DNA of 64,000 nt from Bacteroidales bacterium (GCA_017551725.1 JAFZKY010000037.1:123595-187594), one strand, 5' to 3'; shown: positions 750-63,583, numbered from the stretch's first letter. Notes: a model not told the origin generated them from the sequence alone. Numbers and translations: made by a program.

Positions 750-3050
750 TTAAAACCTTACCCTCACACCTCCCAGGAAGTTGATGCCGGCCTGCGGGAA
801 GTAGCCCGTGTCATAGTATTTGCCCGGTTCATCCTCATAGTAAGAGGTGTAGATCCAGGCATTGCTTTCATACTTGGCGTTGAAGAGGTTGTTGACATGG
901 AAGAAGAGTTCCAAGTCCTTCAAGCATTTGAAATGGAAGGTGTATGAAAGACGCAGATTGCTGTAGGAGTACGGCCTCAAGCAATACGTGTCATCGCCGG
1001 AATTGTCGAGATATTGCTTGCCGACAAACTTGGTGGTCAAGGAGATGTTGAAGTCCTTGAGCGGGGTGAAGGTGAAGTCGTTGCCCAGAATCACGCCTGG
1101 CGAGAAGGAAATCGGGGTGTTGCCCAGTTCTTGGCGCACCTGTCCGTCCCAGTCCCAGTTCTCACCGGAATAGTGGTCCACATAGTTCACGTAATTCACG
1201 ATCCTGTTTATGCTGAGGTTTCCGTTGAAATGCCACGTGAAGAAGCGCACGGGACGGTAGCCCACTGACAGTTCAATGCCGCCGCGAAAGCTTTTATCCA
1301 CATTGGTCATCAGCGCGTCGCCGGTCTGGTCCAGCTCACCGGTGCGCACCAACTGGTTCTTGTAGTTCATGCCATACAGCGTGGCGTTGAGGAAAAACTT
1401 GTCGTTATGAGCCAAATAGCTGAATTCCAAATTGTAAAGAGTTTCCGGAATCGGTTTTCGATCATTTGGAGCCGCCACAAGGTCGTCGCGGGTGGGCTCG
1501 CTGTTGGCTGTGGAAAAGGAGAGGTCGAAGCTGTGTTTCAGTTTTCCACCGTTCAGGTAATAGTGCAGCGCGATTCTGGGGTTCACAAAGTTCCAGTTAT
1601 ATCGCTGCGCAATGTCCATCATATCATCGTTGGTACCGTCAATGACATAGTTGATGTGGCGATATTGCAATTCAGCCGTCACACTGAATTTCTTGTACCA
1701 GTAGCGCAGTCCGCCGAAAAACTTGGTCTGCGTCTTGTGACCAGTGCCGTAATACCATTGGTAATCACACGGATAGTCCTGCACGCGGTTGGGCTGCGCC
1801 CAGATCAGATTTCCGAAATGCTTGCCGTCATAGCGACTGTTGTCCATACCCACCACCCAGCGCAGGCCTTGGTCGGTATGGTTGCGGAACACTTGCGAGC
1901 CGGTATATTGTGCATGGATTCCATAAAAATAGTTGTCCAGATATTTTTGCGTGATGAAATCCGCCTTTTTGATGGAGTCATACAACGGTTCAAGCCCGAA
2001 ATTCCGGATTTTCTTGTTGTCTTTGTATTGCTGATAATAGCCTTCTCCACGCGTCAGGTAAGGCATCATCTGTAATTTGTGATGCTGAAGTCCGTCCTGA
2101 CGGATCCAGTCTTTCAGGTATTCCAGTTGATAGAATGTCTGGGTGTAATTGTCCTTGGAATCCGTATAATAGTGGCGTTGGCCGTCGTCTGTGTAATATT
2201 CGCCGCAGGGATTGTAGGTGCGGTTGGTGGCGAGGCTGTCATACGGAATGCCGCTCCAGGCGAGCCCCGTATGCTCGGTGCCGAACAGGAGATGGAACCT
2301 CAGTTTGCCGTAGTCCTTATTTTTCTTGAAGTTGTAAAGATTGTACTGCGCGGTGAGGAAACCGGAGTTGAGGCGCACGCCGGAATAGTCAAGGAAGCCG
2401 TCGCTGCGGATGTCGGAGAAGGAGGCCAGCATGGAGAAGTGTTTGCCGATAAGGCCGGTGCCTGCGCTCACCATGTTGTGAAAGGTGTTGTATGAGCCGT
2501 AGGAGCTGCGCACCTCGGCAAATGGTCTGTCGGGAATCTCCTTGGTCATAAAGTCGATACGAGTGCTGAAAAGCGTGCTGCCATCGTTGGAGTTGGCGCC
2601 GTTTTGCACGCTCACCTGCCCGATGTAGGCGGCCATATCGGGGAGGTTGACGAGCCAGGAGCCCTGCGACTCGGCATTGTTGATGGTCACTCCGTTGAGG
2701 GTGGTGTTGATGCGCGTCTGGTCGATGCCACGGATGAACATGTAGGTGGCGCCGAGGCCGTTGCCGCCATCCGAAGTGGTGACCACGGAGGGCATCAGCT
2801 CCAGCAGATTGTTGACGCTTCCGTTACCCTGCTGCGCGCGGATCTGCGGCATCGACATGGTGGTGACGTTGGCCGCCGTCTGCACCGTGGGCTTGGTGAA
2901 CTGGATGGTCACTTCCTCCACCTCGCCGCGCTGCACGGTGTCGATTTGTGCCGAAAGCATCGGAGACAACACAATGAGGAACAATAGGGTAACAAAGGAG
3001 TTGACTATGAACTCTGAACCATGAACTTTGAACTTTAAACTTTGAAACAT
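750..3050 (-). CDS. TonB-dependent outer-membrane receptor, TPP-riboswitch controlled (probable thiamine/thiamine-precursor uptake)
   Basis: 766-aa ORF with a signal peptide (..LLFLIVLSPMLSAQ) and a plug-like region (LMPSVVTTSDGGNGLGATYMFIRGIDQTRINTTLNGVTINN). A long barrel ends ..GGVRVRF with a terminal aromatic residue. A THI-box lies about 70 nt upstream. Confidence 0.85.
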   Translation of the reverse strand: MFQSLKFKVHGSEFIVNSFVTLLFLIVLSPMLSAQIDTVQRGEVEEVTIQFTKPTVQTAANVTTMSMPQIRAQQGNGSVNNLLELMPSVVTTSDGGNGLGATYMFIRGIDQTRINTTLNGVTINNAESQGSWLVNLPDMAAYIGQVSVQNGANSNDGSTLFSTRIDFMTKEIPDRPFAEVRSSYGSYNTFHNMVSAGTGLIGKHFSMLASFSDIRSDGFLDYSGVRLNSGFLTAQYNLYNFKKNKDYGKLRFHLLFGTEHTGLAWSGIPYDSLATNRTYNPCGEYYTDDGQRHYYTDSKDNYTQTFYQLEYLKDWIRQDGLQHHKLQMMPYLTRGEGYYQQYKDNKKIRNFGLEPLYDSIKKADFITQKYLDNYFYGIHAQYTGSQVFRNHTDQGLRWVVGMDNSRYDGKHFGNLIWAQPNRVQDYPCDYQWYYGTGHKTQTKFFGGLRYWYKKFSVTAELQYRHINYVIDGTNDDMMDIAQRYNWNFVNPRIALHYYLNGGKLKHSFDLSFSTANSEPTRDDLVAAPNDRKPIPETLYNLEFSYLAHNDKFFLNATLYGMNYKNQLVRTGELDQTGDALMTNVDKSFRGGIELSVGYRPVRFFTWHFNGNLSINRIVNYVNYVDHYSGENWDWDGQVRQELGNTPISFSPGVILGNDFTFTPLKDFNISLTTKFVGKQYLDNSGDDTYCLRPYSYSNLRLSYTFHFKCLKDLELFFHVNNLFNAKYESNAWIYTSYYEDEPGKYYDTGYFPQAGINFLGGVRVRF

Positions 3051-3117
3051 ACTCTTACAGTTTTGGTTTTTAATAAATTAAACAATACTGAAAGAGGGAT
3101 TTGGAAATAGAAACGTT

Positions 3118-3192
3118 TGTCTCCCTACGGCGGCATTATCCGCATCAGGTTCAACGGGTCTGATCTCAGCCTTTCGGCACCCCTTTCAAAAC
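3118..3192 (-). promoter_or_regulatory. TPP (THI-box) riboswitch aptamer
   Basis: The minus strand reads GAAAGGGGUGCCGAAAGGCUGAGAUCAGACCCGUUGAACCUGAUGCGGAUAAUGCCGCCGUAGGGAG. This matches the conserved TPP aptamer blocks GGGGUGC / GGCUGAGA / ACCC / ACCUGAU..GGAUAAUGCC.GCGUAGGGA. It sits between a -7 promoter box and the receptor start codon. Confidence 0.93.
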
Positions 3193-3197
3193 GGCGG

Positions 3198-6186: not shown

Positions 6187-6187
6187 T

Positions 6188-6294
6188 CAGGGATCAGGGG
6201 ACAGGGGTCAGTGATCAGTTAATAGTTGTCGTTCATTGTTCATTATTAACTATTAATTATTAATTGTTAATTATTAATTATTAATTGTTCATGG
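6188..6294. repeat. 7-nt-phased tract of about 15 units (CAG-phase heptamers, then AT-rich heptamers)
   Basis: CAG/TAG/YRT recur at 6188, 6195, 6202, 6209, 6216, 6223 ... 6286, exactly 7 nt apart: cagggat cagggga caggggt cagtgat cagttaa tagttgt cgttcat tgttcat tattaac tattaat tattaat tgttaat tattaat tattaat tgttcat. The tract starts 1 nt after the stop codon at 6184-6186. Confidence 0.8.
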
Positions 6295-6342
6295 TTGAAA
6301 TTCAAAACCCCACACCCGACATGCTATATGATTTTTTTTGAT

Positions 6343-12578: not shown

Positions 12579-12606
12579 ATTTTAGTTATTATCTTAAAAA
12601 TCTATT

Positions 12607-12641
12607 CTGTACCCTGTCAACTGTCCCCTGTACCCTATTCC
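12607..12641. repeat. 7-nt-phased tract (CTG-phase on + strand, so CAG-phase relative to the minus-strand gene it follows)
   Basis: ctgtacc ctgtcaa ctgtccc ctgtacc ctattcc, with CTG/CTA at 12607, 12614, 12621, 12628 and 12635. The last unit contains the PPIase stop codon (12635-12637). Confidence 0.75.
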
Positions 12642-13993: not shown

Positions 13994-14046
13994 TGTTTGT
14001 GACATTTGGAGACCTTTGGTGTTTTGAAAAAACAGGGTGCGAAAAT

Positions 14047-14074
14047 ACAAAAAAAAGAAGACATTTGCCTTCTT
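14047..14074 (-). terminator. weak hairpin plus T-run after rpmH
   Basis: The minus strand reads aagaag-gcaaatgt-cttctt followed by an 8-nt T run. The stem is only 6 bp. Confidence 0.35.
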
Positions 14075-14106
14075 TCTCTTGTTAAAACGCTTATGGGTTC
14101 CAGAAA

Positions 14107-14265
14107 TTATTTTCTACCCAGACTTTCGTCGGAAACTGTCAGTTTCTTTCTGCCTTTTGCACGACGGGCAGCCAGCACGCGGCGGCCGTTTGCCGTGGAC
14201 ATTCTCTCACGGAAACCGTGTTTGTTTCTGCGTCTTGTGTTTGAAGGTTGGAATGTTCTTTTCAT
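14107..14265 (-). CDS. rpmH: 50S ribosomal protein L34
   Basis: Not in the ORF track because it is shorter than 60 aa. Reverse translation gives [52 protein letters not shown], the canonical L34 sequence. Confidence 0.95.
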
Positions 14266-14304
14266 CTCTATTACTATTTATTTTTACTTCTTTTTTAAGG
14301 GCTG

Positions 14305-14312
14305 CAAAAATA
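14305..14312 (-). promoter_or_regulatory. -7 promoter box (TATTTTTG) for rpmH
   Basis: The reverse complement of caaaaata matches TAnnTTTG, 40 nt upstream of the rpmH ATG. Confidence 0.5.
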
Positions 14313-14443
14313 CACTTTTTTTGAAATCAACAAACCTATGGTTCAATATTTTTTTCAACAGCTCAAAAAAGCACTTTTTGAAAGTCGGAGGCAAAGTAAA
14401 TTTTTATTATTATTGCTTCCGTTTTGCAAAACCCGTAAATTAT

Positions 14444-22407: not shown

Positions 22408-22986
22408 ATGCGCAAAACCGGCCTTTACTTCGGATCCTTCAATCCCATCCATATCGGGCATTTGATTATTGCCGAATACATGCTGGAACATTCTGACCTC
22501 GAAGAGCTTTGGTTCGTGGTCTCGCCCCGCAACCCGCTGAAAGAAAAAGCCTCTTTGTTGGATGATCGCCAGCGACTCCATTTGGTAAACCTGGCCATTG
22601 AGGATGACGACCGATTCCGGGCCAGCGACGTGGAGTTTGCCCTACCCCAGCCCTCGTACACGTGCCACACTCTGGTGCATCTGGCGGAGAAATATCCCCA
22701 GCGGGAGTTCGCCCTCATCATGGGGGAAGACAACCTGCAGACCATCTACAAGTGGCTGAACTATGACTGGATTCTGGAAAACTACGACCTCTACGTCTAT
22801 CCCCGTCCGGGATATGACGCCGGAGAATACAAGGAAGGCCCTCGCATCCATTTCGTGGAGGCACCGTTAATCGAGCTGTCGTCCACCCTGATTCGGGAAA
22901 ACCTCCGGCAGAACAAGGCTGTACGCTACATGCTACCACCAAAAGTATGGCAATATCTGGACGAAATGGGATTTTATAAAACTTAA
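22408..22986 (+). CDS. nadD: nicotinate-nucleotide adenylyltransferase
   Basis: I prefer the ATG at 22408 (MRKTGLYFGSFNPIHIGHL, the HxGH nucleotidyltransferase motif) over the TTG at 22384, which overlaps the promoter box. The C-terminal part contains the SSTLIR motif. Confidence 0.9.
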   Translation: MRKTGLYFGSFNPIHIGHLIIAEYMLEHSDLEELWFVVSPRNPLKEKASLLDDRQRLHLVNLAIEDDDRFRASDVEFALPQPSYTCHTLVHLAEKYPQREFALIMGEDNLQTIYKWLNYDWILENYDLYVYPRPGYDAGEYKEGPRIHFVEAPLIELSSTLIRENLRQNKAVRYMLPPKVWQYLDEMGFYKT

Positions 22987-23056
22987 GACCAACGACCAGA
23001 GACTATAGACCGAGGACTTTACAAACATTATAAACCTTACAAACATTACAAACAAC
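22987..23056. repeat. 7-nt-phased tract (GAC-phase heptamers, then A/C-rich heptamers) abutting the nadD stop codon
   Basis: gaccaac gaccaga gactata gaccgag gacttta caaacat tataaac cttacaa acattac aaacaac. GAC recurs at 22987, 22994, 23001, 23008 and 23015. Confidence 0.65.
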
Positions 23057-24552: not shown

Positions 24553-25440
24553 TCACGGCCAGATTTGAGTGACACCACGATAGGTGATTTCCACATGCCC
24601 ATCCTCAAGAAGATTTGCTTCTGCCCCATTGGTTCCTTGGTCGTTCGTGACTTGCATTTCAATTCTCCCAGCTCGGAAGAAAGGGGAATACGTGAAAAAT
24701 CCGGCATAACTCTGCAAATGTTGAATCTCCGAAGATTCCTCATAATAAGTCATCCCAAACTCCACGGGTTCAATAATACGATATTGCATAACCGTTCGCT
24801 TCTGTAAACGGACCCCATTATAAGTAAAACTTGAACGAAACCCGAACAGGCCCTGTCCTGACAATGACAGCGAAGCACCCAATGAGAGTGGCCACAGACC
24901 ATTCTCGTTGGTCAGTGTCAAGTCCATGCGACAATCTGAGGAATCCTGCGCATCGCTGACAAATGTCCATGTGTGCGCATCCAAACATGTAATATACACG
25001 ACGGACCCGTCCATCTTCTCAATTGTCTGGTTGTACTGTTCGGGAACCGGCACGCAAGTCATCCTCATACAGGCACCCTGCTCATTCAGCGATTGGCCCT
25101 GCAGCATTTCCACCTCCAGGTAGCTATGCGACCAACGGGTGTCGGTAATCCGCCAATGCCGTTCACCGATGGTATCCAGTTTTATCGAATAATTGAGGAA
25201 CAACGATTTCAAAAGATTGGCCTGTTCGGCACCGGATGCCGCCAGCACCGCATTCATACGAAGGGCGGTTTCTATCGTTGTACCCGTCATATCCCGCATA
25301 CTACTGAACCACCCATTGTACATAAGCCTGCCTGTTTGCGTCTTGCCTTTCTCGCCAACCCCGAGGGTGCAGGCCGTCATGGCCAATGCCAGCATTACGT
25401 ATGCCATCCCTCTAACCCACTGTCTGGTCTGTTTTTTCAT
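24553..25440 (-). CDS. hypothetical lipoprotein
   Basis: I prefer the start MKKQTRQWVRGMAYVMLALAMTAC (lipobox, ATG at 25440). The 52-codon upstream extension in the ORF track overlaps the preceding gene. No recognisable domain. Confidence 0.6.
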   Translation of the reverse strand: MKKQTRQWVRGMAYVMLALAMTACTLGVGEKGKTQTGRLMYNGWFSSMRDMTGTTIETALRMNAVLAASGAEQANLLKSLFLNYSIKLDTIGERHWRITDTRWSHSYLEVEMLQGQSLNEQGACMRMTCVPVPEQYNQTIEKMDGSVVYITCLDAHTWTFVSDAQDSSDCRMDLTLTNENGLWPLSLGASLSLSGQGLFGFRSSFTYNGVRLQKRTVMQYRIIEPVEFGMTYYEESSEIQHLQSYAGFFTYSPFFRAGRIEMQVTNDQGTNGAEANLLEDGHVEITYRGVTQIWP

Positions 25441-25471
25441 ATTTTTATTATTTATAATTTGAAACAAGAAA

Positions 25472-27028
25472 CTAAAACTCATAACCGAAACCGGCGGAAA
25501 TGAGGCCCTTGAAGCCCGCGCCCAACTCCACATTGCCGAACCAGCCTTTCGCACCCGCCTTGACACCCAGCATCGTAACGTGGACGGCCCCCGCAAACGC
25601 AGTATAGTTTGTGGCGACTGGCTGCACCTGTTTTGAGGTGAAATTGCCTATCAGCAAGCCTCCTGACAATTCAGAATACAACGTCACATGTTTCCGGTTG
25701 AGATAGGAGAAACGCAGATCTGCCATCAAATCAAAAAAGGTATTGTGTTCGGATTGTCCTTTCACCCGCTTGTCCGTCAGCCGGTCGTAGTAATAGGCGT
25801 AAAATTCAGAAAAGTCAGCGGTGAGGCCCACCCAAAGCCACTTGTAGGCGCGGTAATGATAACTTAGGGAAATCACAGGCGTGTAACGGACCTTGCTGTA
25901 CGTGTCACTGGTCAAAGTCCAATTATAGGGATTGTATTCTTCTTGGCTTATTAGATATTTTTTGTATAGTTTTGGAAACCAATCAGAAAAAATGGTAAAC
26001 ATCACCAACGAGCTGTATTCGGACTGTAGGTTCGGGATGCCGACGTTGAACTGAAATTCATGGCGATGGAACGTCTTCTCGTCAGACCAGCCCGGCGACA
26101 CTTCATCATACCAGGGTACTTTATGGAACTCTTTCTCTTTATGCTTCTGGAACGTATGGATGTATGCAATCTGCGGATATATGTATTGGTTTTTAAAAGA
26201 GACTGTACCTTCCTCTACAACAACATCTTGTGTAGAATATGTGTAGCAGCCATGCCAAAACATCGCTGGTGACAGATTGGTCCCAAGTGTAAAACGAAGC
26301 AAGCCGTTGTTTTTCAGCTGGTAATAGAAGCCCAAATCCATCAGGAAGCCCGTGTTGATACGACGCTCGTTTTTTATTTGAGAATAATACTCTGTTTCTA
26401 TAGGATAAGAAAACGACTGATCATCGTACAACAAACCGACACTGCTGAACGAACCGCTGTTACTGTAAGGATAGGGGGTGCTGAAACGGGCCCCTATATC
26501 GGCCACGAGCCAGAATCGGGAATTGAACGGCATGTGAAATTCAAATTTCAAGGGGACGGAAATACCGAACATGGAGAAACGGAAATGAGCGGGCTCACCG
26601 ATATAAACCGCATCCTCATACCTGATGTTACAGGCATAATGGGAGCCGAGATTGATCCCTGCTGAAACACCGAAATATTTCGCGAAATGGTAGGAAAACT
26701 CCAACCCGCCCACATACCCACTGCCCGGCCGAGATTTTATAAGGCTTTTTTCGCCGTCAGAATTGATAAGTTCCGCCGGACTCATCAGCTGGTACTGGAA
26801 AACGTATCCTAAATGGAACCCCTTGAAAATCTCGGGCACGAAGGCGGTTGTTCGGGTGGGTGCAACGGGCGTATCCGGCTCCGCCACCATCGGATAGTAA
26901 ATCGTATCGTGCATGTAAACAGTATCATATACAATCTTTTCCTCTACAACGTAGATGGTGTCGCGCGCCTGCCCATGCAACTGCATACACATTAGAATCG
27001 ATAAAAGGAATAAAGAGGTTTTATGCAT
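25472..27028 (-). CDS. hypothetical outer-membrane beta-barrel protein with DT[VI]Y-repeat N-terminal extension
   Basis: 518 aa with a signal peptide (..MCMQLHGQA). The mature N-terminus is RDTIYVVEEKIVYDTVYMHDTIYYP. The body is aromatic/Gly-rich with alternating pattern, and the C-terminus is ..SAGFGYEF. Confidence 0.6.
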   Translation of the reverse strand: MHKTSLFLLSILMCMQLHGQARDTIYVVEEKIVYDTVYMHDTIYYPMVAEPDTPVAPTRTTAFVPEIFKGFHLGYVFQYQLMSPAELINSDGEKSLIKSRPGSGYVGGLEFSYHFAKYFGVSAGINLGSHYACNIRYEDAVYIGEPAHFRFSMFGISVPLKFEFHMPFNSRFWLVADIGARFSTPYPYSNSGSFSSVGLLYDDQSFSYPIETEYYSQIKNERRINTGFLMDLGFYYQLKNNGLLRFTLGTNLSPAMFWHGCYTYSTQDVVVEEGTVSFKNQYIYPQIAYIHTFQKHKEKEFHKVPWYDEVSPGWSDEKTFHRHEFQFNVGIPNLQSEYSSLVMFTIFSDWFPKLYKKYLISQEEYNPYNWTLTSDTYSKVRYTPVISLSYHYRAYKWLWVGLTADFSEFYAYYYDRLTDKRVKGQSEHNTFFDLMADLRFSYLNRKHVTLYSELSGGLLIGNFTSKQVQPVATNYTAFAGAVHVTMLGVKAGAKGWFGNVELGAGFKGLISAGFGYEF

Positions 27029-38476: not shown

Positions 38477-41400
38477 ATGAAAAACAGTAACAAAATTTTC
38501 TGCTTGACGCTCCTGATGGTCTGCATGGTATTCGGTACCGTGCGAGCCGAGAAAGTAAAAGGAGTTCGTAGATCCTCCTCACCCAAAGCGGAATCGGCGA
38601 CCTGTCTTCCGGCAAGTAACTCCAATGAGCTTTCGGTGAACAACGTACGTGCGTACATTGAAACCGGTGGTACGATGTGGTTCAAGGAAGTGGCCGAATA
38701 CGAAGTGCCCAAGGGATCCGGCAAAACCTCCATGTTCTCCGCAGCTTTGTGGATCGGTGGTCTGGATGCCAACGGCCAGTTGAAATTGGCTGCCGTCCGT
38801 TTCCGCCAAGTCGGCGACGACTACTGGACCGGACCTCTGAAAATCACGGGTGCCGGCACAACGCAATCTGAATGTATCAAGTTTGACAAACTGTTCAAAA
38901 TCTCGCGTGCGGAAGTGGATAACCACATTTCCAGTTTCAGCACCAGCGGCTACGTGACCCCTGCCAGCATTCTTAACTGGCCTGCCCACGGCGATGAAGG
39001 GTATTCCTACTATCTGGCCCCCTTCAAAGATGTGAACGTGAACGGTGTTTATGACCCGGAAGCCGGTGACTACCCGTACTATGACATCAACAACGACCTC
39101 TGTCCCTGGACGGAAGACAACATCGCCGCTGCAGCTGCCCATGAGCTGCCGAGAACACCCGAGGACCTGTGGATGGAATACCGCAATTATGGTGGCTCCG
39201 GTTCTGGTGAATTCCAGTATGACTGGAGACGTTCCAACGGTATGATTTATGCCGACCACGTGTTGAAAGGCGATGAAACCCTTTTCTGGATTTTCAACGA
39301 CAACGCCGGCGCCCACACCGAGTCTCAAGGTAGCCCCATCGGCTTGGAAATCCGCGGACAGTGCTTCGGATTCTCCACCAACGACGATCTGAACAACATG
39401 ACATTCTACTCCTACGAGATTATCAACCGTTCCACCTATACGCTGACGAACACGTTCTTCTCCCAATGGGTTGACCCCGATTTGGGTTATGAAAAAGACG
39501 ACTACGTAGGTTGCGACGTGGCTCGTGGTTTGGGTTACTGCTACAATGGTTCCAACGTGGACGGTACAGGCCAAACCAAGGCATACGGCGACCAACCGCC
39601 AGCGGTGGGTGTGGACTTCTTCCAAGGCCCCTACATGGATCCTGACAACCGCGACAACCCTAAATTCAACCCTGACAGCGCCTCTGTTCCTGGATATTGC
39701 AAAAAATTCCTCGATGATGAATTCGACCAGATGGCCATCAACGGTGTGAACTTCGGCGATGGCATCGTGGACAACGAGCGTTTCGGTATGAGAAGATTCG
39801 TGTATCACAACAACGACAACTCCGTGGTGGGTGACCCTGACGTGGCATTTGAATATTACAACATGCTGCAGGGTATCTGGAAAGACAACACCAAGATGCG
39901 CTACGGCGGAAACGCCCACTACACAGTAGGCGGTAACGGTCCTGAATGTGACTTCATGTTCCCCGCTCTGACGGACGTCTGTAACTGGGGTACGAAAGGT
40001 GAGGATCCTTCCGCTGCCACGTATGGTGCCGACGGATGGACGGAAGCCAATGTGGGCAACGCCCCCGCTGACCGTCGTTTCATGCAGTCCGCAGGCCCCT
40101 TCACGTTGAGACCGGGTTCTGTGAACTACATCACCGTTGGTATTCCATGGGCACGCGCTTCCCAAGGTGGCGCACAGGCTTCCGTGGAATTGCTGAAATT
40201 GGCCGATGATAAGTGCCAGTCGCTCTTCGAGAACTGCTTCAAAACCCTCGACGGCCCGTGGGCACCGGATTTGACCATCCGCGAACTTGAAAACCAATTG
40301 GTCATCTATATCTCCAACGAGAACAAAAACAGCAACAACTACCACGAAACCTACTTCGAATTGGATCCGCAGATTTCCAGAACACTGTCCACCTCCACGT
40401 TTGAAAAGGTGTACGACACATTATACGTGTATGATGTGAACGGAAATCCTGACACGGTAATCACCTCCAACATTGTAGCCGTCACCAAAGAAGACACGTT
40501 GAGCACCGAACAACGTCGCTATTACTTTGAAGGTTATCAGATTTACCAATTGGCAAACTCTTCCGTCAGCGCCACCGACCTGAACGATCCGAACAAGGCT
40601 ATTCTGATAGCCCAATGCGATATCAAAAATGGTGTAGGACAGATTGTGAACTGGGTTTACAATGAGGCTGTTGGAACATCTGTTGCCACGGAAATGGTGA
40701 ACGGCAGCGACCAAGGCATCTTCCACTCTTTCGTCGTGAAAGAAGACAAGTTCGCCACTGGTACGAACAAAGCGCTGGTGAACCACAAGGAATACTATTT
40801 CATGGCCATCGCTTATGGTTACAACCAATACAAGGAATTCAAACTGGATGCCGACTATCTTGACGGACAAAAGACACCGTATCTGGCCGGTCGTCTCAAC
40901 ATCGATGTTTACACTGGTATTCCGCACAAGTCCTCCGGCACTATCCAGAACAGCGTCTATGGCGATCAACCTATGATCACCCGTATTGAAGGACAGGGCA
41001 ATGGTGGTTTCTTCTTGGATATGACGGACGAATCCCGTCAGAAAATCTTGGAGAACAACACCTTCAACGACATTCAATACAAGAACAACTACGGTCCTCT
41101 GAATATCAAGGTGGTGGATCCGTTGCAGGTGAAACCTTACGACTACACCATCCGTCTGCTGCCCAACGATGTGGACAATGATGTGAACGACCAGACGGAA
41201 TGGCAATTGGTCATCAGCGACGAGGTTCCCGATGCCGAATTGGAAGAATTGGGCATTGAACGTGTTTCCAAAGCTGCCATGCCAATCAGCATGACCAATG
41301 AGGAATTGTTCCTCGACCTTGGTATTTCCATCTCGATCATCAACGACAACTTCAAGATTTATCAGAAGAATCTTAATGATTATGTGGCCGACAGCTTGGG

Positions 41401-43288
41401 CTTCAATTACAGAACCCTTACCTGGTACGGGCAGGTTGACCTTGTGGGTGCGACCATCGACTATGGTGACGGTCTGCCTTGGCTGACGGGTGTTGCCGAT
41501 ATTGAAGGTGACTATCCCGCCAACTGGATTCATGCTGGTAGCCAAGAAGCCGGAAAATGGTATGACTGGTACTCTCCCGATGAGGAACAACAGCATGGAG
41601 AGCCGGGTCAGGAAGGTGCCATGAACAAGTATTACGAATGGCGTACCGAAGACATGTGCTGTATCATGGACAAGGGAACACTGAACGAATCTGAGCCCAC
41701 CCGTGGATTCAAAGACCCGAACCAGCAGTTCGAGGGTATTTTGAACGGCACGTGGGCACCTTACGTGCTCTCATCCCCGTACGATGGAGGTCCTCAGGCC
41801 AAATACATCGTACCGGACAACAAATTCTATGATGAGGATGAAGGCAGTCCGGCCCCGGCATATTTCGACTTCACTCAGTTGAAAGGTTCTATCAGCAACC
41901 CGGGTTATAACCAGACGCTGACCAACCTGTACTCTGTTGACATCGTGTTGACTCCAGACAAGAGCCTTTGGACACGTGCTTTGGTATTGGAGGCTGGTTC
42001 AAGTCCTGAGTCAGAGAATTATAAAGTCAAACAGAACTTCAATGGCAAGACCTACACCAACTATCGTCATGAGCCGAAGACTTGTCCTTCCGTGGACAAG
42101 GATGGCAATCCTTACACAGGCACCGACAATGCTGCCAGCAACAACCCGGATGACCCGAACTACATCGGTGCTACCGGTTATGGTTGGTTCCCGGGCTATG
42201 CCATCAACGTGGAAACCGGCGAGCGTTTGAACATCATGTTCGCAGAAAACTCCCTGGATCCTTATAACAATGGTAGTGACATGATTTTCAACCCGACGAA
42301 TGTGTATGCTTTCTACCGTAATGCCGAAACACAAGAATTCATTCTGGATGAGGAAGGCAATCCTATGGGCATGAACCAAAGCACATTCAACATGATTCGT
42401 GACAGTTATGGTCAATATGCCATCATGTATGGTGAGCCTCAAAATGGTGGACGCCATTATGTTTACATCTGTGGCAGTTCCGGCAATACCTGTAGTATGT
42501 ATTACCGTTCCAGCACCCGTAAGCGTAACTTCAACGATTCCGACAAACAAACATCAAGCCAAGGTGTCAAACATGGTGGATATTTCACCGGTTCTGACGG
42601 AGGATACTATCCTTGGTACGATTGCGGTTCGTATGATAATGGCAGATGGCTGGGTGAAAAGTTCAAAACATTCGTCAACAAGAAAGACATGAACGATCCG
42701 GCCCGTATACTGATGAAGATGCAGTTGTTCAACAATGTCATGTACACCAGCATCCCGATGCCTTACATGATGATGGAAGACAACTGGCTCTCCTGCGATG
42801 CCACCATCAAGATTCGTGTTTCCCGTCCATACCTGAGATACTCTTCTCGCTGGTTTGATGATGCAAGCACGGCACCGAACGCTGACCAGAACGACGGTTA
42901 TCCTATGTACAAGTTCACCACAAAGAACCTCGCTCCGACCAAGTCGGAAACTGCAGAAGAGGTTCAGACTGTGCTTGACGACATCAACATCGTTCCGAAC
43001 CCGTACTACGGATTCTCCCAGTATGAGCAGACAGCTCTGCAGAACTACGTCCGCATCGTGAACCTTCCTGAAAAGTGTACCATCTCCATCTACACGGTCA
43101 ACGGTACACTCATCCGGACAATCACGAAGGGTAACACGGATTCTTACGTACAATGGGATTTGAAGAACCACGCCAACATCCCGATTGCCGGCGGTGTTTA
43201 CATCATCCATGTGAAAGCCGATGGATTCGGCGAACGCACGCTCCGGTTCTTCTGCGCAATGCGCCCAACAGACTTGAATGGTTTCTAA
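38477..43288 (+). CDS. giant secreted hypothetical protein (1603 aa) with T9SS C-terminal-domain-like end
   Basis: Signal peptide MKNSNKIFCLTLLMVCMVFGTVRA. About 24 Cys residues and several Asp/Asn/Gly-rich stretches (VNGVYDPEAGDYPYYD, DKDGNPYTGTDNAASNNPDDPN). I recognise no catalytic motif. The last roughly 100 aa are VPNPYYGF..VRIVNLPEKCTISIYTVNGTLIRTI..WDLKNHANIPIAGGVYIIHVKADGFGERTLRFF, which resembles T9SS CTD beta-sandwiches. Confidence 0.7.
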   Translation: MKNSNKIFCLTLLMVCMVFGTVRAEKVKGVRRSSSPKAESATCLPASNSNELSVNNVRAYIETGGTMWFKEVAEYEVPKGSGKTSMFSAALWIGGLDANGQLKLAAVRFRQVGDDYWTGPLKITGAGTTQSECIKFDKLFKISRAEVDNHISSFSTSGYVTPASILNWPAHGDEGYSYYLAPFKDVNVNGVYDPEAGDYPYYDINNDLCPWTEDNIAAAAAHELPRTPEDLWMEYRNYGGSGSGEFQYDWRRSNGMIYADHVLKGDETLFWIFNDNAGAHTESQGSPIGLEIRGQCFGFSTNDDLNNMTFYSYEIINRSTYTLTNTFFSQWVDPDLGYEKDDYVGCDVARGLGYCYNGSNVDGTGQTKAYGDQPPAVGVDFFQGPYMDPDNRDNPKFNPDSASVPGYCKKFLDDEFDQMAINGVNFGDGIVDNERFGMRRFVYHNNDNSVVGDPDVAFEYYNMLQGIWKDNTKMRYGGNAHYTVGGNGPECDFMFPALTDVCNWGTKGEDPSAATYGADGWTEANVGNAPADRRFMQSAGPFTLRPGSVNYITVGIPWARASQGGAQASVELLKLADDKCQSLFENCFKTLDGPWAPDLTIRELENQLVIYISNENKNSNNYHETYFELDPQISRTLSTSTFEKVYDTLYVYDVNGNPDTVITSNIVAVTKEDTLSTEQRRYYFEGYQIYQLANSSVSATDLNDPNKAILIAQCDIKNGVGQIVNWVYNEAVGTSVATEMVNGSDQGIFHSFVVKEDKFATGTNKALVNHKEYYFMAIAYGYNQYKEFKLDADYLDGQKTPYLAGRLNIDVYTGIPHKSSGTIQNSVYGDQPMITRIEGQGNGGFFLDMTDESRQKILENNTFNDIQYKNNYGPLNIKVVDPLQVKPYDYTIRLLPNDVDNDVNDQTEWQLVISDEVPDAELEELGIERVSKAAMPISMTNEELFLDLGISISIINDNFKIYQKNLNDYVADSLGFNYRTLTWYGQVDLVGATIDYGDGLPWLTGVADIEGDYPANWIHAGSQEAGKWYDWYSPDEEQQHGEPGQEGAMNKYYEWRTEDMCCIMDKGTLNESEPTRGFKDPNQQFEGILNGTWAPYVLSSPYDGGPQAKYIVPDNKFYDEDEGSPAPAYFDFTQLKGSISNPGYNQTLTNLYSVDIVLTPDKSLWTRALVLEAGSSPESENYKVKQNFNGKTYTNYRHEPKTCPSVDKDGNPYTGTDNAASNNPDDPNYIGATGYGWFPGYAINVETGERLNIMFAENSLDPYNNGSDMIFNPTNVYAFYRNAETQEFILDEEGNPMGMNQSTFNMIRDSYGQYAIMYGEPQNGGRHYVYICGSSGNTCSMYYRSSTRKRNFNDSDKQTSSQGVKHGGYFTGSDGGYYPWYDCGSYDNGRWLGEKFKTFVNKKDMNDPARILMKMQLFNNVMYTSIPMPYMMMEDNWLSCDATIKIRVSRPYLRYSSRWFDDASTAPNADQNDGYPMYKFTTKNLAPTKSETAEEVQTVLDDINIVPNPYYGFSQYEQTALQNYVRIVNLPEKCTISIYTVNGTLIRTITKGNTDSYVQWDLKNHANIPIAGGVYIIHVKADGFGERTLRFFCAMRPTDLNGF

Positions 43289-43316: not shown

Positions 43317-44498
43317 ATGAAAAATATATATAAGTCATTAATAATTTGCACAATGATTGCTCTTTTATCTGTCGGTACGTCCTACAACGTACTGGCAGGT
43401 AACAGAGACCGTTCCGGTCAGGCTGGTGCATCGCATCTGCTGATAGACCCCTGGGCACGCACCAACGGTATGGCGAATGCCGGCGTAGCCGAAATTCGCG
43501 GATTGGAGTCTGTATATTCCAATGTAGCCGGTTTGACGTACGTGAAAAAGACGGAATTTGCCTTCAACCGCACCCAATACTTGGTGGGTTCCAACTGTGG
43601 CATCAACATCAACGCCTTAGCCTTTGCCCAGCACCTCGGCAAGAACAAGGATTTTGGTACGATCGGTATCTCCTTCTCATCCATGGGTTTCGGCAACGTC
43701 CAGATTACCACGGTCAACCAGCCGGAGGGCGGTTTGGGAACATTCTCTCCCTCCCTTTCCGTTATCGGTATCCATTATGCCAAATCCTTCAACAACTTCA
43801 TCAAGGGTGGTGTTTCCCTGAAGATTGTGAACGAACGCATCGCTGACCTGCACGCCACGGGTTTTGCCATCGATGCCGGTGTCCAATACATTGCCGGTAA
43901 GTTCGAGAACTTCAAAATCGGCGTGACTTTGAAGAACATCGGTCTGCCCATGTCCTACAAGGGCGATGGTTTGACCTACAGAGGCCGAATCAACAACACG
44001 TCCGTTGAGCAGACATTGGCCGTCCGTTCCGCAGAATATGAGATGCCCTCCCTGTTGGCTATCGGTATTTCCTACGACTTCCTGTTTTTCGGCGGCGAAT
44101 ATGCTGGCATGTCCAAAGCCGAATTGGAAGAGGAAGGCCTCACCCGTGATGACGCAGCACACCGCATCACCCTGGCTGGTACCTTCACCGCCAACTCCTA
44201 CTCCCGCGACATCTTCGCCGTGGGTCTTGAATACGGCTTCATGAACTACTTCATGGTTCGCGCCGGCTACGCCCTGGAGAATGTCACGAAACGCACGGAA
44301 ACGAACGACGAAGGCCAAGAGCTTAGCACGATTCTGTTCAACAACGACTCGTTCTTTGCCGGTCCTTCCGCAGGTGCCACTGCTATCATCCCGTTGAAGA
44401 AAGGTAATACCGGTGCCCGTATTTACATTGACTATGCCTACAGATTCACCAACAAGTGGAGAGGCAATCACGTCATCGGTATCAAAGTCACCTTATAG
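43317..44498 (+). CDS. PorV/PorQ-family outer-membrane beta-barrel protein (T9SS shuttle-like)
   Basis: 393 aa with a signal peptide. The N-terminal block GQAGASHLLIDPWARTNGMANAGVAEIRGLESVYSNVAGL follows the PorV/PorQ pattern (G.aGa..L.i.p.AR..GMg.aGvA......NvAGL). The size equals that of PorV proteins, and the C-terminus is ..GNHVIGIKVTL. Confidence 0.7.
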   Translation: MKNIYKSLIICTMIALLSVGTSYNVLAGNRDRSGQAGASHLLIDPWARTNGMANAGVAEIRGLESVYSNVAGLTYVKKTEFAFNRTQYLVGSNCGININALAFAQHLGKNKDFGTIGISFSSMGFGNVQITTVNQPEGGLGTFSPSLSVIGIHYAKSFNNFIKGGVSLKIVNERIADLHATGFAIDAGVQYIAGKFENFKIGVTLKNIGLPMSYKGDGLTYRGRINNTSVEQTLAVRSAEYEMPSLLAIGISYDFLFFGGEYAGMSKAELEEEGLTRDDAAHRITLAGTFTANSYSRDIFAVGLEYGFMNYFMVRAGYALENVTKRTETNDEGQELSTILFNNDSFFAGPSAGATAIIPLKKGNTGARIYIDYAYRFTNKWRGNHVIGIKVTL

Positions 44499-60150: not shown

Positions 60151-60158
60151 TATCTTTG
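60151..60158 (+). promoter_or_regulatory. -7 promoter box (TATCTTTG) for ftcD
   Basis: TAnnTTTG match 52 nt upstream of the ATG at 60210. Confidence 0.5.
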
Positions 60159-60209: not shown

Positions 60210-61910
60210 ATGAAACAGTTAATCGAATGTGTTCCTAACTTTAGTGAAGGCAAAAATCAAGACATCATCAACCAGGTGGCCGACGTAATCCGTCAGGCCG
60301 AGGGCGTCACACTGCTGGATGTGGACCCGGGTGCCACCACCAACCGCACCGTGGTCACGTTTGTGGGCACTCCCGATGCCGTGGTGGATGCCGCTTTTGC
60401 GCTCATCGCCAAATGCAAAGAGCTGATAGACATGCGTTATCATCACGGTGACCATCCCCGTTTCGGTGCCACGGACGTGTGTCCGTTTGTGCCGGTGGCC
60501 AACATCACCATGGAAGAGACGGCGGAATACGCCCGCAAGTTGGCCAAGAAGGTAGGTGAAGAATTGCAGATTCCGGTTTACTGTTATGAGAATGCCGCCT
60601 TTGAGGAGAAACGCCGCAACCTAGCCAACTGCCGCCAGGGCGAATACGAGGCCCTGAAAGAGCGCATCACCACCAAGGAGTGGAAGCCCGACTTTGGTCC
60701 CAACAAGTTCACGGAGAGTGTGGCCAAGAGCGGTGCCACCGCCATCGGCGCCCGCGACTTCCTCATCGCCGTCAACTACAACCTGAACACCACCTCCACG
60801 CGCCGCGCCAACGCCATCGCCTTCGACGTGCGCGAGAAGGGCCGCCCGAAGCGTGAGGGCAACCCCATCACCGGCAAGAAGGTGCTGGACGAGAAGGGCA
60901 ACCCGGTCATGATCCCCGGCACGCTCAAGGGCACCAAGGCCATCGGCTGGTACATCGCCGAGTACGGTGTCGCCCAGGTCTCCATGAACATCACCAACAC
61001 CAACCTCACCCCGTTGCACGTGGCCTTTGACGAGGTGTGCGACAAGGCGGCCAAGCGGGGCGTGCGCGTCACCGGCACGGAAATTGTGGGTCTCGTGCCC
61101 AAGAAAACCCTCATCGACGCGGGCAACCACTATCTGGCCAAACAGCACCGCTCCCTCGGCATCGATGAGCGCGAGAAGGTGAAAATCGCCGTCAAGTCCA
61201 TGGGCTTGGATGACCTCAAACCCTTCAATCCGGATGAGAAAGTGATTGAATACTTGCTTGAAAAAGAGGATACTACACCCAAGTTGGTGGACATGACCTG
61301 CACGGGTTTCGCCAATGAGACGGCCTCCGAAAGTCCGGCCCCCGGCGGCGGCTCCATTTCCGCCTACATGGGAGCCCTGGGCGCCGCCCTCGGCACGATG
61401 GTCGCCAACCTCTCCTCCCATAAGCCGGGCTGGGATGCCAAGTGGGAATATTATTCCCAATGGGCTGAAAAAGGCCAAGCCCTCAAAGACACGCTGCTGG
61501 CCCTCGTGGATGAGGATACCAACGCCTTCAACGTGATTATGAACGCCTTCGGTATGCCGAAAGGCACGCCTGAAGAGAAAGAGGCGCGTTCGCAGGCCAT
61601 CCAGGATGCCACCAAGTACGCCACCGAAGTGCCTATGCGCACCATCGAGACCTCCTTCAAGGTGTTCGAGATCTGCGAGGCAATGATCAAGAAGGGCAAC
61701 CCCGCCAGCGTGTCCGACGCGGGCGTGGGCGTACTCTGTGCGCGTGCAGCCGTCCACGGCGCCTACCTCAACGTCAAAATCAACGCCTCCTCGCTGAAAG
61801 ACAAAGCGTGGGCCGAGATGATGATCACCAAGGCGCACGACTACGTGATGAAAGCCGACCGCATCGAAAAGAGACTGATGAGGTTGACGGAGAAGGTGAT
61901 CGGTGAATAG
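60210..61910 (+). CDS. ftcD: bifunctional glutamate formimidoyltransferase / formimidoyltetrahydrofolate cyclodeaminase
   Basis: 566 aa. MKQLIECVPNFSEGKN is the hallmark start of the formiminotransferase domain. The C-terminal roughly 200 aa are helical and cyclodeaminase-like (GGGSISAYMGALGAALGTMVANLS). Confidence 0.9.
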   Translation: MKQLIECVPNFSEGKNQDIINQVADVIRQAEGVTLLDVDPGATTNRTVVTFVGTPDAVVDAAFALIAKCKELIDMRYHHGDHPRFGATDVCPFVPVANITMEETAEYARKLAKKVGEELQIPVYCYENAAFEEKRRNLANCRQGEYEALKERITTKEWKPDFGPNKFTESVAKSGATAIGARDFLIAVNYNLNTTSTRRANAIAFDVREKGRPKREGNPITGKKVLDEKGNPVMIPGTLKGTKAIGWYIAEYGVAQVSMNITNTNLTPLHVAFDEVCDKAAKRGVRVTGTEIVGLVPKKTLIDAGNHYLAKQHRSLGIDEREKVKIAVKSMGLDDLKPFNPDEKVIEYLLEKEDTTPKLVDMTCTGFANETASESPAPGGGSISAYMGALGAALGTMVANLSSHKPGWDAKWEYYSQWAEKGQALKDTLLALVDEDTNAFNVIMNAFGMPKGTPEEKEARSQAIQDATKYATEVPMRTIETSFKVFEICEAMIKKGNPASVSDAGVGVLCARAAVHGAYLNVKINASSLKDKAWAEMMITKAHDYVMKADRIEKRLMRLTEKVIGE

Positions 61911-61947
61911 GGTACAGGGTACAGTGAACAGGGTACAGGGTACATTT
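61908..61947. repeat. 7-nt-phased CAG-type tract (left flank of the four-helix-bundle gene)
   Basis: taggg tacaggg tacagtg aacaggg tacaggg taca. TAG/CAG recur at 61908 (the ftcD stop codon), 61915, 61922, 61929, 61936 and 61943. Confidence 0.8.
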
Positions 61948-61955
61948 TTTGAAAT

Positions 61956-62312
61956 ATGATAAAGAACTATAGAGAGTTGATTGTATGGCAGAAGGCTATG
62001 GAAATGGTGGAGAATATCTATACCTTGACCCAGTCGTTACCCAAAGATGAGTTGTTTTCCATAACTAATCAAATACGACGTGCAGCAATATCAGTACCTT
62101 CTAATATAGCAGAAGGATATGGGCGACAATCGAAAAAAGAATATCTGCAATTTCTATCAATAGCCAATGGCTCCGTATGCGAAATCGAAACCCAGTTATT
62201 GTTGTGTCTAAGAATTGGTTATCTAACAGAAGAAAACACAAAAGAGACCTTTCAATTACTTTCCGAAATTGGAAAAATAATAACAACAATCAAACAAAAA
62301 CTCAAAACATAA
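61956..62312 (+). CDS. four-helix-bundle protein (23S rRNA intervening-sequence protein / Avd-like family)
   Basis: 118 aa. The sequence LIVWQKAMEMVENIYTLTQSLPKDELFSITNQIRRAAISVPSNIAEGYGRQSKKEYLQFLSIANGSVCEIETQLLL matches the family signature (W.ka..l...iy.....P..E.....Q.rRaa.Si..NIAEG..r.s..e...fl.iA.GS..E..t.l). The gene is visibly AT-rich compared with its neighbours. Confidence 0.9.
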   Translation: MIKNYRELIVWQKAMEMVENIYTLTQSLPKDELFSITNQIRRAAISVPSNIAEGYGRQSKKEYLQFLSIANGSVCEIETQLLLCLRIGYLTEENTKETFQLLSEIGKIITTIKQKLKT

Positions 62313-62362
62313 TCCCTGTTCCCTAATTACTGACTACTATCCCCTGACCCCTGATTCCTAAA
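62313..62362. repeat. 7-nt-phased CTG-type tract (right flank, inverted relative to 61908-61947)
   Basis: tccctg ttcccta attactg actacta tcccctg acccctg attccta. CTG/CTA recur at 62316, 62323, 62330, 62337, 62344, 62351 and 62358. The reverse complement gives CAG-phase heptamers. Confidence 0.8.
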
Positions 62363-62371
62363 TAACACACA

Positions 62372-63535
62372 ATGAAACTATTAATGGTCCTCTCGCGCTT
62401 CCCGTATCCCCTTGAGAAGGGGGACAAGCTGCGTGCGTACCATCAGATTCGTTGCCTGTCGGAACAACATGAGATATTCCTGGCCGCCATGCACGACAAG
62501 CCGGTGACCGACGAGGACCTGCGCCAGCTGGAGCCTTTCTGCAAGGAGATCTTTCTTTTGGACAATAATCACCTTAAACGCTGCTGGAACATGGGCAGGG
62601 CTTTCTTCAAGGGCCTGCCCATCCAGTGCGGACTTTTCTACAACAAGACCAATGCGCGACGGCTGGAGGAGATTGTCCAAAAGGTGCAACCCGACCATAT
62701 CTACTGCCAACTCTTCCGGATGGCGGAATACGTGAAGACCATGCCCCTGCCCAAAACGCTTGACTATCAGGATGTCTTCTCCAAAGGCATGGCGCGGCGG
62801 GCCGAGAACGCCCGTGGACTGAAAAGGGCCCTCTTCCGCATGGAGGCCCGCCGCGTGGCACGCTATGAGGAGCACCTCTTCGACCTTTTTGACCATACGA
62901 CCATCATCACCGCCGTGGACCGCGACCTCATCCCCCACCCGCGCAACCGCGAGATTGCAGTGGTGCCCAACGGTGTGGACTTCGACCAATTCACCTATCA
63001 TGGCGAGACCAAATCGTATGATCTGATTTTCTCGGGCAATATGGGATATGCCCCCAATGTGGATGCCGCCGAATACCTGGCTACGGAAATCTTGCCCCCG
63101 CTACTGGAGGGATTTCCCGACATGAAACTGGTGCTGGTTGGGGCTAACCCCTCCGCAAGGGTGCGCGCCCTGCGCAACGAACACGTCATCGTGACCGGCT
63201 GGGTGGACACGATGGCCGACTGGTATGCCCAATCCAAGGTCTTCATCGCCCCGATGCGCATGGGCACGGGACTGCAAAACAAACTGCTGGAAGCCATGTC
63301 CATGCAACTGCCCTGCGTCACATCCCCATTAGCCGCCAAACCTCTGTCCGGAGCCGAAACTGAAAACGCCGTCTGCGTATGCCATAACACCCACGACTAT
63401 GTGGAAGCCATCCGCCAACTTTTGCGGAATGAAGAGGCATACCGACAGCTGGCCGCCGCCGGCCACCGCTTCGTGCACGAGCATTACGACTGGCAAAATG
63501 CCACAGACAAACTGTTGCAAATCATCGCCCAATAA
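62372..63535 (+). CDS. glycosyltransferase family 4
   Basis: 387 aa. MKLLMVLSRFPYPLEKGDKLRAYHQI is a GT4 N-terminal domain. The C-terminal part is FIAPMRMGTGLQNKLLEAMSMQLPCVTS. Confidence 0.8.
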   Translation: MKLLMVLSRFPYPLEKGDKLRAYHQIRCLSEQHEIFLAAMHDKPVTDEDLRQLEPFCKEIFLLDNNHLKRCWNMGRAFFKGLPIQCGLFYNKTNARRLEEIVQKVQPDHIYCQLFRMAEYVKTMPLPKTLDYQDVFSKGMARRAENARGLKRALFRMEARRVARYEEHLFDLFDHTTIITAVDRDLIPHPRNREIAVVPNGVDFDQFTYHGETKSYDLIFSGNMGYAPNVDAAEYLATEILPPLLEGFPDMKLVLVGANPSARVRALRNEHVIVTGWVDTMADWYAQSKVFIAPMRMGTGLQNKLLEAMSMQLPCVTSPLAAKPLSGAETENAVCVCHNTHDYVEAIRQLLRNEEAYRQLAAAGHRFVHEHYDWQNATDKLLQIIAQ

Positions 63536-63575: not shown

Positions 63576-63583
63576 TACCTTTG
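63576..63583 (+). promoter_or_regulatory. -7 promoter box (TACCTTTG)
   Basis: TAnnTTTG match 90 nt upstream of the ATG at 63673. Confidence 0.4.

Follow-up and report, generated by a model that had tools for sequence, protein, structure and literature searches.

A four-helix-bundle gene enclosed by complementary heptamer arrays at the ftcD–GT4 junction of a Bacteroidales bacterium

Between the gene for formiminotransferase-cyclodeaminase (ftcD) and a gene for a GT4-family glycosyltransferase (GT4), a 64,000-nucleotide stretch of DNA from a Bacteroidales bacterium (GCA_017551725.1, JAFZKY010000037.1:123595-187594; here called the window, with positions counted from its first letter) carries a small AT-rich gene for a four-helix-bundle (4HB) protein, enclosed by two arrays of seven-base repeats. 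What kind of element is this, and what ties a gene of this family to such repeats? We find that the arrangement is real and statistically solid, and that it is one instance of a rule that holds across most of the bacterial phyla sampled. As an explanation we favour, though only modestly, a module of the type known as an intervening sequence (IVS) in ribosomal RNA (rRNA), here residing in an operon, whose arrays would pair in the polycistronic RNA and form a probable substrate of RNase III.

The upstream host gene, ftcD (60210..61910, plus strand; FTCD_N, FTCD and FTCD_C domains), ends in a TAG at 61908-61910 that serves both as its stop codon and in the first unit of the 5' arm. This arm is a purine-rich array of five heptamers in YAG phase (61909..61944, plus strand; TAGGGTA CAGGGTA CAGTGAA CAGGGTA CAGGGTA), reported by Tandem Repeats Finder with period 7, 5.1 copies, the consensus AGGGTAC, and a score of 58. 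In relatives, ftcD is one codon shorter (565 amino acids, ending in ...KVIG before the stop); in the window the TAA has become GAA and the TAG of the array is used instead, so that the array has captured the end of the gene. A spacer of 11 nucleotides (nt) without an exact promoter box (ATTTTTTGAAAT; 61945..61955, plus strand) leads to the 4HB gene (61956..62312, plus strand), an open reading frame (ORF) of the PF05635/TIGR02436 family that spans 357 nt including the stop and encodes 118 amino acids. The C-rich 3' arm (62314..62362, plus strand) begins 1 nt past the stop of this ORF. It comprises about seven units (TCCCTGT TCCCTAA TTACTGA CTACTAT CCCCTGA CCCCTGA TTCCTAA) and is the inverted counterpart of the 5' arm. 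The ATG of the downstream host gene, GT4 (62372..63535, plus strand), follows 9 nt after it.

Together, these parts make up the 461 nt between the ftcD stop and the GT4 start. The original prediction, made by a model from the sequence alone, had assigned the whole gap to an array starting with the ftcD TAG, a visibly AT-rich ORF of 357 nt and an inverted array, and each element is found where it placed them; GC content is about 0.33-0.39 in the ORF and 0.55-0.65 in the genes on either side of it. The window holds four strong period-7 arrays, compared with none in 50 local shuffles, and the same scan returned no strong arrays of period 5, 6, or 8. Rfam shows no rRNA anywhere in the window and no family on the cassette, for which PADLOC gives no match either. 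The 4HB gene is the sole copy of its family within the window.

The 4HB product matches the family models PF05635 (E = 2e-41, 140.9 bits, cutoff 33.8), TIGR02436 (133.7 bits, cutoff 24), and NF008911 (148.6 bits, cutoff 137). Its closest solved structure is PDB 2GSC, the protein XCC0516 from Xanthomonas campestris (E = 1.7e-24), followed by PDB 2RLD from Bacteroides thetaiotaomicron (E = 4e-7), and both entries were deposited with five chains. The protein was also predicted to be a relative of Avd, the accessory protein of diversity-generating retroelements (DGRs); this stands, given a four-helix-bundle fold homologous to that of Avd from Bordetella phage BPP-1 (PDB 4DWL), though the scores of the protein lie under the curated cutoffs of the two Avd models (PF22296, bAvd, 38 bits against 40; NF033474, DivGenRetAVD, 45 bits against 80). 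Avd is a pentameric, positively charged barrel that resembles S23 proteins and binds an RNA stem-loop (bioRxiv 10.1101/2023.10.23.563531). As a homologue of this pentamer, the 4HB protein is probably RNA-binding. Among orthologues at the ftcD–GT4 junction dN/dS is 0.06-0.11, with synonymous sites saturated between deeper lineages. Where it is retained, the ORF is thus under strong purifying selection and functional. The family is large, with 25,083 clusters at E <= 1e-3 (clusters at 50% identity).

To see how far the layout extends, we used an alignment of 29 homologues to collect 80 loci from species-representative genomes. The sample was drawn by similarity to the query and covers Clostridia, Proteobacteria, Planctomycetota, Acidobacteriota, Bacteroidota, Actinobacteria, Elusimicrobiota, the candidate phyla radiation (CPR), and others. 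With a strong array defined as at least 17 period-7 matches in a 21-position window, no more than 120 nt from the ORF, 35 of the 80 loci have one upstream and 29 have one downstream; each of the other periods examined (4-6 and 8-12) is found in one locus at most. In these loci, arrays number 3.19 per kb next to the ORF and 0.099 per kb in the remaining sequence, a 32-fold difference. Weaker arrays are visible on reading the flanks of nearly all other listed loci and of most of a further 34 loci from viral contigs. The original prediction suggested testing whether each paralogue in the genome is bracketed by inverted period-7 arrays; among the homologues of this similarity-based sample, array, ORF, and inverted array recur as one unit.

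The units of the upstream array share a core of Y (87%), A (88%), and G (95%), followed by G/T-rich positions, while the heptamer itself varies by locus (GGTTAGT, GGCAGTG, GGACTAG, GGAATAG, and others). Within a locus, the downstream array nevertheless repeats the reverse complement of the upstream heptamer. Since duplex energies between loci are confounded by GC content and array length, we compared the arms by alignment and by consensus heptamer instead. In 36 of 37 loci the consensus heptamers of the two arms agree at 5 or more of the 7 positions, whereas 23% of cross-locus pairs do so, and local alignment of one arm to the reverse complement of the other gives a median score of 33 within a locus and 14 across loci. 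Median length of the paired arms is 31 nt; four units are the commonest number and five the next.

The cassette also follows positional rules. Measured as medians, the distance is 1 nt from the stop of a co-oriented upstream gene to the beginning of the 5' arm, 7.5 nt (mode 0) from the ORF stop to the beginning of the 3' arm, and 10 nt from the end of the 3' arm to the start of the downstream gene. GC content of the ORF is below that of its flanks in 79 of the 80 loci (median -9 points) and tracks that of the host (r = 0.87). A high AT content thus characterises the family and does not point to recent transfer.

Two loci of the collection show further variations of the pattern. In L106, a Pyrinomonadaceae metagenome-assembled genome, a second, divergent 4HB paralogue of 118 amino acids (357-713, in the region 320-756) has a fabH-like gene on one side and a fabD-like gene on the other; its arrays are four copies of GCGGATT and four of AATCCGC, and the first paralogue has CAGTGGT-type units. 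In L068, an AATCCGC-type array (3895-3934) lies within a coding region, where it encodes the ...NPQSEIRDPQS... linker of a lipoyl-domain protein.

Can the two arms of the window cassette meet on one RNA? A Bacteroidota-type -7 promoter box, TAtcTTTG, lies upstream of ftcD (60151..60158, plus strand). On the plus strand between 59900 and 63700, the pattern TAnnTTTG occurs only there and at 63576, downstream of GT4, and no terminator-like site was found between ftcD, the 4HB gene, and GT4. These observations suggest that the three genes form one transcription unit, which would place both arms on a single RNA. The predicted RNA duplex between the arms has an energy of -38.4 kcal/mol, a value reached by none of 500 shuffled partners (-20.6 +/- 3.6). 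In the predicted fold of 61895-62375 the arms are paired in both the minimum-free-energy and the centroid structures. These calculations lend support to the long-range stem enclosing the gene that was one of the two original proposals.

We therefore favour, at the modest confidence stated above, the following course of events. The ftcD gene, the cassette, and GT4 would be transcribed from the ftcD promoter as a single RNA, in which the arrays would form an imperfect stem, about 35-45 nt long, with the ORF looped out; the stop codon of ftcD and the start codon of GT4 would come to lie at its base. By homology with 23S rRNA intervening sequences bearing the same ORF family, RNase III would cut this stem. 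Cleavage would free an ORF-bearing RNA and set the ends of the host message, so that the insertion would be tolerated. Slippage would expand and contract each array independently, with arm complementarity within the locus held by selection or homogenisation. GT4 lacks a promoter of its own here, so the length of the 3' array may also tune its expression. The 4HB protein, kept by purifying selection, would bind RNA, and its own YAG-N4 repeats or the stem are plausibly its target.

Several observations weigh against this reading. The fold of the whole cassette has a z-score of just -1.9, and the stem in the window is imperfect, with about 5 of 7 positions paired per unit. Among strains with an identical 4HB protein, arm lengths vary independently (4-5 units upstream and 3-11 downstream), so a length-matched stem is not strictly kept. 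Across loci, arm mismatches of the G:U type number 64 and those of the A:C type 77 (p = 0.31). There is thus no wobble signature that would specifically favour pairing in the sense RNA over complementarity or homogenisation at the DNA level. The wobble comparison is uninformative; most arm variation is by unit turnover, not point mutation. In many copies from Bacteroidota and viral contigs a TAnnTTTG-like box stands between the 5' arm and the ATG, and transcripts from such a box would contain the 3' arm only. Solo arrays without a partner are common, in the window and at other loci, so pairing is not the sole role of such arrays. Bacterial neighbours are typically co-oriented in about 70% of cases, and the share of same-strand neighbours around the ORF is only modestly above this (65 of 76 loci, 86%, upstream; 58 of 76, 76%, downstream). 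Finally, no gain by insertion and no naive empty site were found, the gene-less junctions being secondary losses, so we infer mobility from distribution only.

The TAnnTTTG-like boxes are present in the viral contigs L206, L208, L213-L216, L219, L221, L223, L225, and L226. In contrast to the window cassette, these Bacteroidota-type copies may be transcribed from a promoter of their own.

The history of the cassette can be read at the ftcD–GT4 junction itself. Close homologues, down to 75% protein identity, are all located between ftcD and GT4, also where the genes further out are different ones. Among contigs encoding an identical 4HB protein, the 3' array has 3-11 units and the 5' array 4-5, always in steps of 7 nt; the 5' arm of strain L015 is one unit longer, and, through changes in the 3' array, the GT4 start lies 33 to 89 nt behind the 4HB stop.

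A metagenome scan with the GT4 protein returned further states of the junction. Intact cassettes with other heptamers are present in L114 (CAGTAGT-type) and L116. In L122 and L123 the ORF is internally deleted and the arms are retained; in L120 only the arms are left, abutting each other in a 64-nt spacer that folds into a hairpin of -22.2 kcal/mol. L121 and L127 have no ORF and arm remnants of one unit at most, with a promoter box before GT4. Other cargo occupies the junction in two cases. In L115 (1830-3000), GAGACGT and ACGTCTC arrays surround an unrelated cargo of about 1 kb that encodes a protein of about 250 amino acids. In L119 (1706-3000), the cargo is toxin-antitoxin-like, with weak array remnants, an antitoxin-like ORF, a 102-amino-acid ORF, and a putative lipoprotein; the 102-amino-acid ORF was judged ParE/RelE-like from its sequence, without a profile search. 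The first and last segments of the two cargos are common to both.

In neighbour-joining trees of the GT4 protein and of the 3' end of ftcD, the gene-less junctions are nested within cassette-bearing lineages. The cassette is thus ancestral to the clade, and the polymorphism reflects loss and decay, not insertion. L121 and L127, at first taken as a naive empty site, were withdrawn from that role, since the trees nest both and probable arm remnants are visible by eye. From these sequences we conclude that the cassette at this junction is old, vertically inherited, and repeatedly lost or decayed. The presence/absence polymorphism for which the original prediction suggested comparing related strains does exist; it runs in the direction of loss, with the gene ancestral, and this speaks against a recent mobile cassette at the locus.

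At one junction of this type the repeats seem to have multiplied. In L020 (GCA_024686335.1), the spacer between ftcD and the 4HB gene measures 386 nt (2615-3000) and contains three tandem ORF-less hairpins, each made of a G-array, the conserved loop CCACATGGCAAC, and a C-array, with a long C-type array after the third. A fourth ORF-less hairpin (3358-3469) lies behind the 4HB gene. The arrangement suggests that an ORF-less derivative has multiplied locally.

Elsewhere in the window, two solo arrays lie on the sense strand of their neighbours without a complementary arm. The first (6187..6302, plus strand) starts directly after the TAA of a radical-SAM/SPASM gene and has about 16 in-phase heptamers that drift from TCAGGGG to TTATTAA. 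The second (12600..12637, minus strand; TAGGGTA CAGGGGA CAGTTGA CAGGGTA CAGAATA) uses its first TAG as the stop of a SurA-like gene and belongs to the same heptamer family as the cassette arms. The unrelated genes ftcD (61902-61910) and the SurA-like rotamase gene (12635-12643, minus strand) both end in GAATAG|GGTACAGGG. Relatives with identical neighbour proteins at the two sites show turnover of units only, and no cassette was found at the second in 7 related contigs, including strains with an identical MoxR neighbour. The two arrays had been noted as gene-less, which they are, and interpreted as empty sites; we reject that interpretation, because they have one arm only and their relatives never show a cassette.

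Could the repeats instead be primary and the cassette a by-product? Heptamer arrays might be genome-wide cis-elements of transcripts that the 4HB pentamer binds or generates, with its own gene autoregulated and the cassette-like appearance secondary. We consider this unlikely. In its favour, the solo arrays in the window have the CAGGG-type heptamer of the cassette and are in every case on the sense strand of the neighbouring genes, and at other loci arrays far from the ORF match the heptamer family of the local cassette. The two divergent paralogues of L106 have heptamer families of their own (CAGTGGT and GCGGATT), and the modal array of 4-5 units would suit a pentamer; among strains, however, unit number runs from 3 to 11. 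In Xanthomonas, a GGGAATC array lies between bccP (XCC0517) and XCC0516, the gene of the 2GSC protein, and extends over the annotated XCC0516 start; 186 such arrays are present in the genome (PMC4692102 supplement). For the TAACTGA arrays of Beggiatoaceae, MacGregor proposed an unknown post-transcriptional binder (PMC4679880). Protein similarity and heptamer similarity are correlated across loci (Mantel rho 0.18, p about 0.001), but only weakly so, and host relatedness and GC content confound the relation. A factor acting in trans does not by itself account for the complementarity of the downstream array to the upstream one, nor for arms that abut the stop and start codons of the neighbours.

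A different order of events is one in which intergenic heptamer hairpins, each a G-array plus a C-array, pre-exist, the 4HB ORF or other cargo enters their loops, and gene-less arrays are unoccupied sites. ORF-less hairpins with two arms are indeed found, in L120, L107 (3672-3741), L059 (229-326), and L071 and three times in tandem in L020, and the arms of L115 surround the unrelated 1-kb cargo. Among CPR bacteria, ORFs annotated 23S_rRNA_IVP occupy several rRNA insertion sites (PMC11270868), and rRNA intervening sequences offer an analogy in being located at hairpin tips. At the one junction with a readable history, however, ORF-less and gene-less states derive from ORF-bearing ancestors, and L122 and L123 have lost the ORF by deletion from within. 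No conserved sequence was seen at the ends of the ORF insert in loci read by eye without a formal test, and the arrays at 6186 and 12607 are single-armed, with no cassette in any of their relatives. We therefore judge this order of events distinctly improbable, and with it the idea that the arrays are a pre-existing attachment or target structure, since the genuine ORF-less versions have both arms abutting, as in L120.

A further possibility centres on GT4: a 7-nt simple sequence repeat (SSR) before a promoterless surface glycosyltransferase gene could tune or switch it as a contingency locus, with the 4HB gene as a passenger. Copy number does differ among close strains (3-11 units downstream, 4-5 upstream), as in phase-variable repeats, and the 3' array shifts the distance between the 4HB stop and the GT4 start from 33 to 89 nt while the 4HB protein stays identical. 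GT4 lacks a promoter box in the window, whereas cassette-less relatives have TAtcTTTG before it. A precedent is hmw1A of Haemophilus influenzae, where the transcript of a heptamer SSR folds into a hairpin processed by RNase III, and this hairpin controls both hmw1A and the length dynamics of the repeat (PMC12721329). That system resembles ours in pairing a heptamer array of strain-variable length with a purine-rich partner in a long hairpin of the 5' untranslated region before a surface-related gene, but its partner arm is adjacent, with no ORF in the loop and no 4HB protein. Homologues in the 80 genomes stand beside all kinds of genes, so the layout is not specific to GT4, and the 4HB ORF is strongly purified by selection. 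As an account of the cassette this is very unlikely.

That the cassette is a remnant or component of a DGR, with the 4HB protein as its Avd, can be dismissed as extremely improbable: the only points in its favour are the weak matches to PF22296 and NF033474, both under the model cutoffs and far surpassed by the IVS-protein and TIGR02436 models; no reverse transcriptase domain (RVT), nor any recombinase domain, as had been predicted, is present in the 39 window ORFs scanned, a set outside which the 1603-amino-acid ORF at 38477-43288 lies; the junction in relatives consists of ftcD, the 4HB gene, and GT4 only; PADLOC finds no match; template and variable repeats are likewise missing, though no search aimed at them was made; and flanking heptamer arrays are a feature of the cassette and not of DGRs.

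The system closest to the favoured reading, an operon-resident IVS-type module, is the rRNA intervening sequence of Coxiella burnetii and also Leptospira, where a PF05635 ORF lies within inverted repeats that form a long stem. The IVS in the Coxiella 23S rRNA gene has an ORF of the same family and inverted repeats whose 28-bp stem is a substrate of RNase III in vitro; upstream of the ORF it carries GACAGAT heptamers whose copy number varies between strains, and cleavage occurs at the start of the first repeat (PMC4990558). CAG-core heptamers upstream of the ORF and a variable copy number are thus shared with the window cassette, as is a GC content below that of the host; in some Coxiella strains the ORF is decayed, as it is in some lineages at our junction. 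The rRNA intervening sequence is hence the same module, and the cassette is not categorically new. There are also clear differences. The element in the window lies between protein genes of an operon and not in rRNA helix 25 or 45, its heptamer arrays make up both arms, and its cleavage by RNase III is putative only. Its ORF is under strong purifying selection, whereas the Coxiella protein S23p is, according to the authors, probably not made and decaying (PMC4990558). In CPR bacteria, ORFs of the family are found in insertions of both 16S and 23S rRNA genes and have been called uncharacterised (PMC11270868).

Comparison with mobile elements gives a mixed picture. Like integron cassettes, miniature transposable elements with inverted repeats (MITEs), and repetitive extragenic palindromes, the element combines a promoterless co-oriented ORF with imperfect inverted repeats and has ORF-less derivatives that appear to multiply locally (L020). 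Unlike an integron cassette, it has two arms instead of a single 3' attC, and no integrase is encoded by the scanned ORFs. As to transposons and MITEs, neither a transposase nor conserved termini nor a target-site duplication was found, there being no naive empty site for comparison, and the arms are tandem heptamers that differ by locus.

Arrays of heptamers without an assigned partner have been described in several groups and left unexplained, in Xanthomonas and Nostoc (PMC4692102) and in Beggiatoaceae, cyanobacteria, and Bacteroidetes (PMC4679880). In these papers the arrays are stand-alone features, read as G-quadruplexes or as targets of some regulator, and the 4HB protein family goes unmentioned. 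We rejected a G-quadruplex as the general role, because only 13 of 52 consensus heptamers in our loci contain GGG. The described arrays (the cyanobacterial short tandemly repeated repetitive sequences, STRR, with GGGGA(C/T)T; GGGAATC in Xanthomonas; TAACTGA in Beggiatoaceae) resemble the cassette arms in being intergenic, in having period 7, in often abutting stop or start codons, in their orientation bias relative to genes, and in a copy number that varies between relatives. Sometimes they form convergent pairs (70-75 in Xanthomonas). They differ in that the arrays of the cassette are tied to a specific gene.

In the searchable literature, a body that does not extend to subscription-only papers or to free-text comments in databases, we found no link between PF05635 and heptamer arrays beyond rRNA, and the Coxiella IVS paper alone places heptamers with the 4HB family. 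The operon setting, the two-armed architecture of YAG heptamers, the positional rules, and the connection to orphan repeats appear to be undescribed there. Taken jointly, the data raise a wider possibility, which we put forward tentatively and with considerable doubt: the S23p/4HB family could be the missing partner of bacterial heptamer repeats (STRR, GGGAATC, TAACTGA, and others). A gene with inverted YAG-heptamer arms would then be a domain-wide element of stop–start junctions and rRNA hairpins, its pentamer would recognise the repeats, and solo arrays and ORF-less hairpins would be its footprints or its targets in trans.

Two other regions of the window contain repeats of a related kind. 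Within 3001-3194 on the minus strand lies a TPP riboswitch (RF00059, 67.6 bits), and about six degenerate heptamers of CAAAGTT type (3001..3050, minus strand) extend from it to the annotated start of a TonB-dependent receptor; this array therefore sits in a riboswitch-controlled leader. At 22975-23054, a weak heptamer-like run of AGACCA type lies at the end of a cytidylyltransferase gene and is followed, before the next gene, by four copies of the 9-nt repeat TTACAAACA. Four large ORFs of the window, of 964, 347, 518, and 393 amino acids (14006-16900, 24553-27028, 43317-44498), have no Pfam match at E <= 1e-5.

For annotation, the arrays matter in that they shift gene ends, as with the ftcD stop, and in that their variation among strains can break assemblies. 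More broadly, the results tie long-unexplained seven-base repeats to a specific protein family. They yield a concrete rule, a YAG-core array, an ORF, and a complementary array between a stop and a start codon, and this rule predicts RNase III-dependent RNA ends within the arms, a protein that binds (YAG-N4)n, and a downstream gene that responds to array length. These predictions could be tested in cultured organisms with solved protein structures, namely Xanthomonas campestris and Bacteroides thetaiotaomicron. Stand-alone Avd-like proteins are among the largest uncharacterised families of small proteins. If the connection is true, the reason for this abundance, the purpose of the ORFs in rRNA intervening sequences, and the intergenic excess of heptanucleotides would come together as one testable system.

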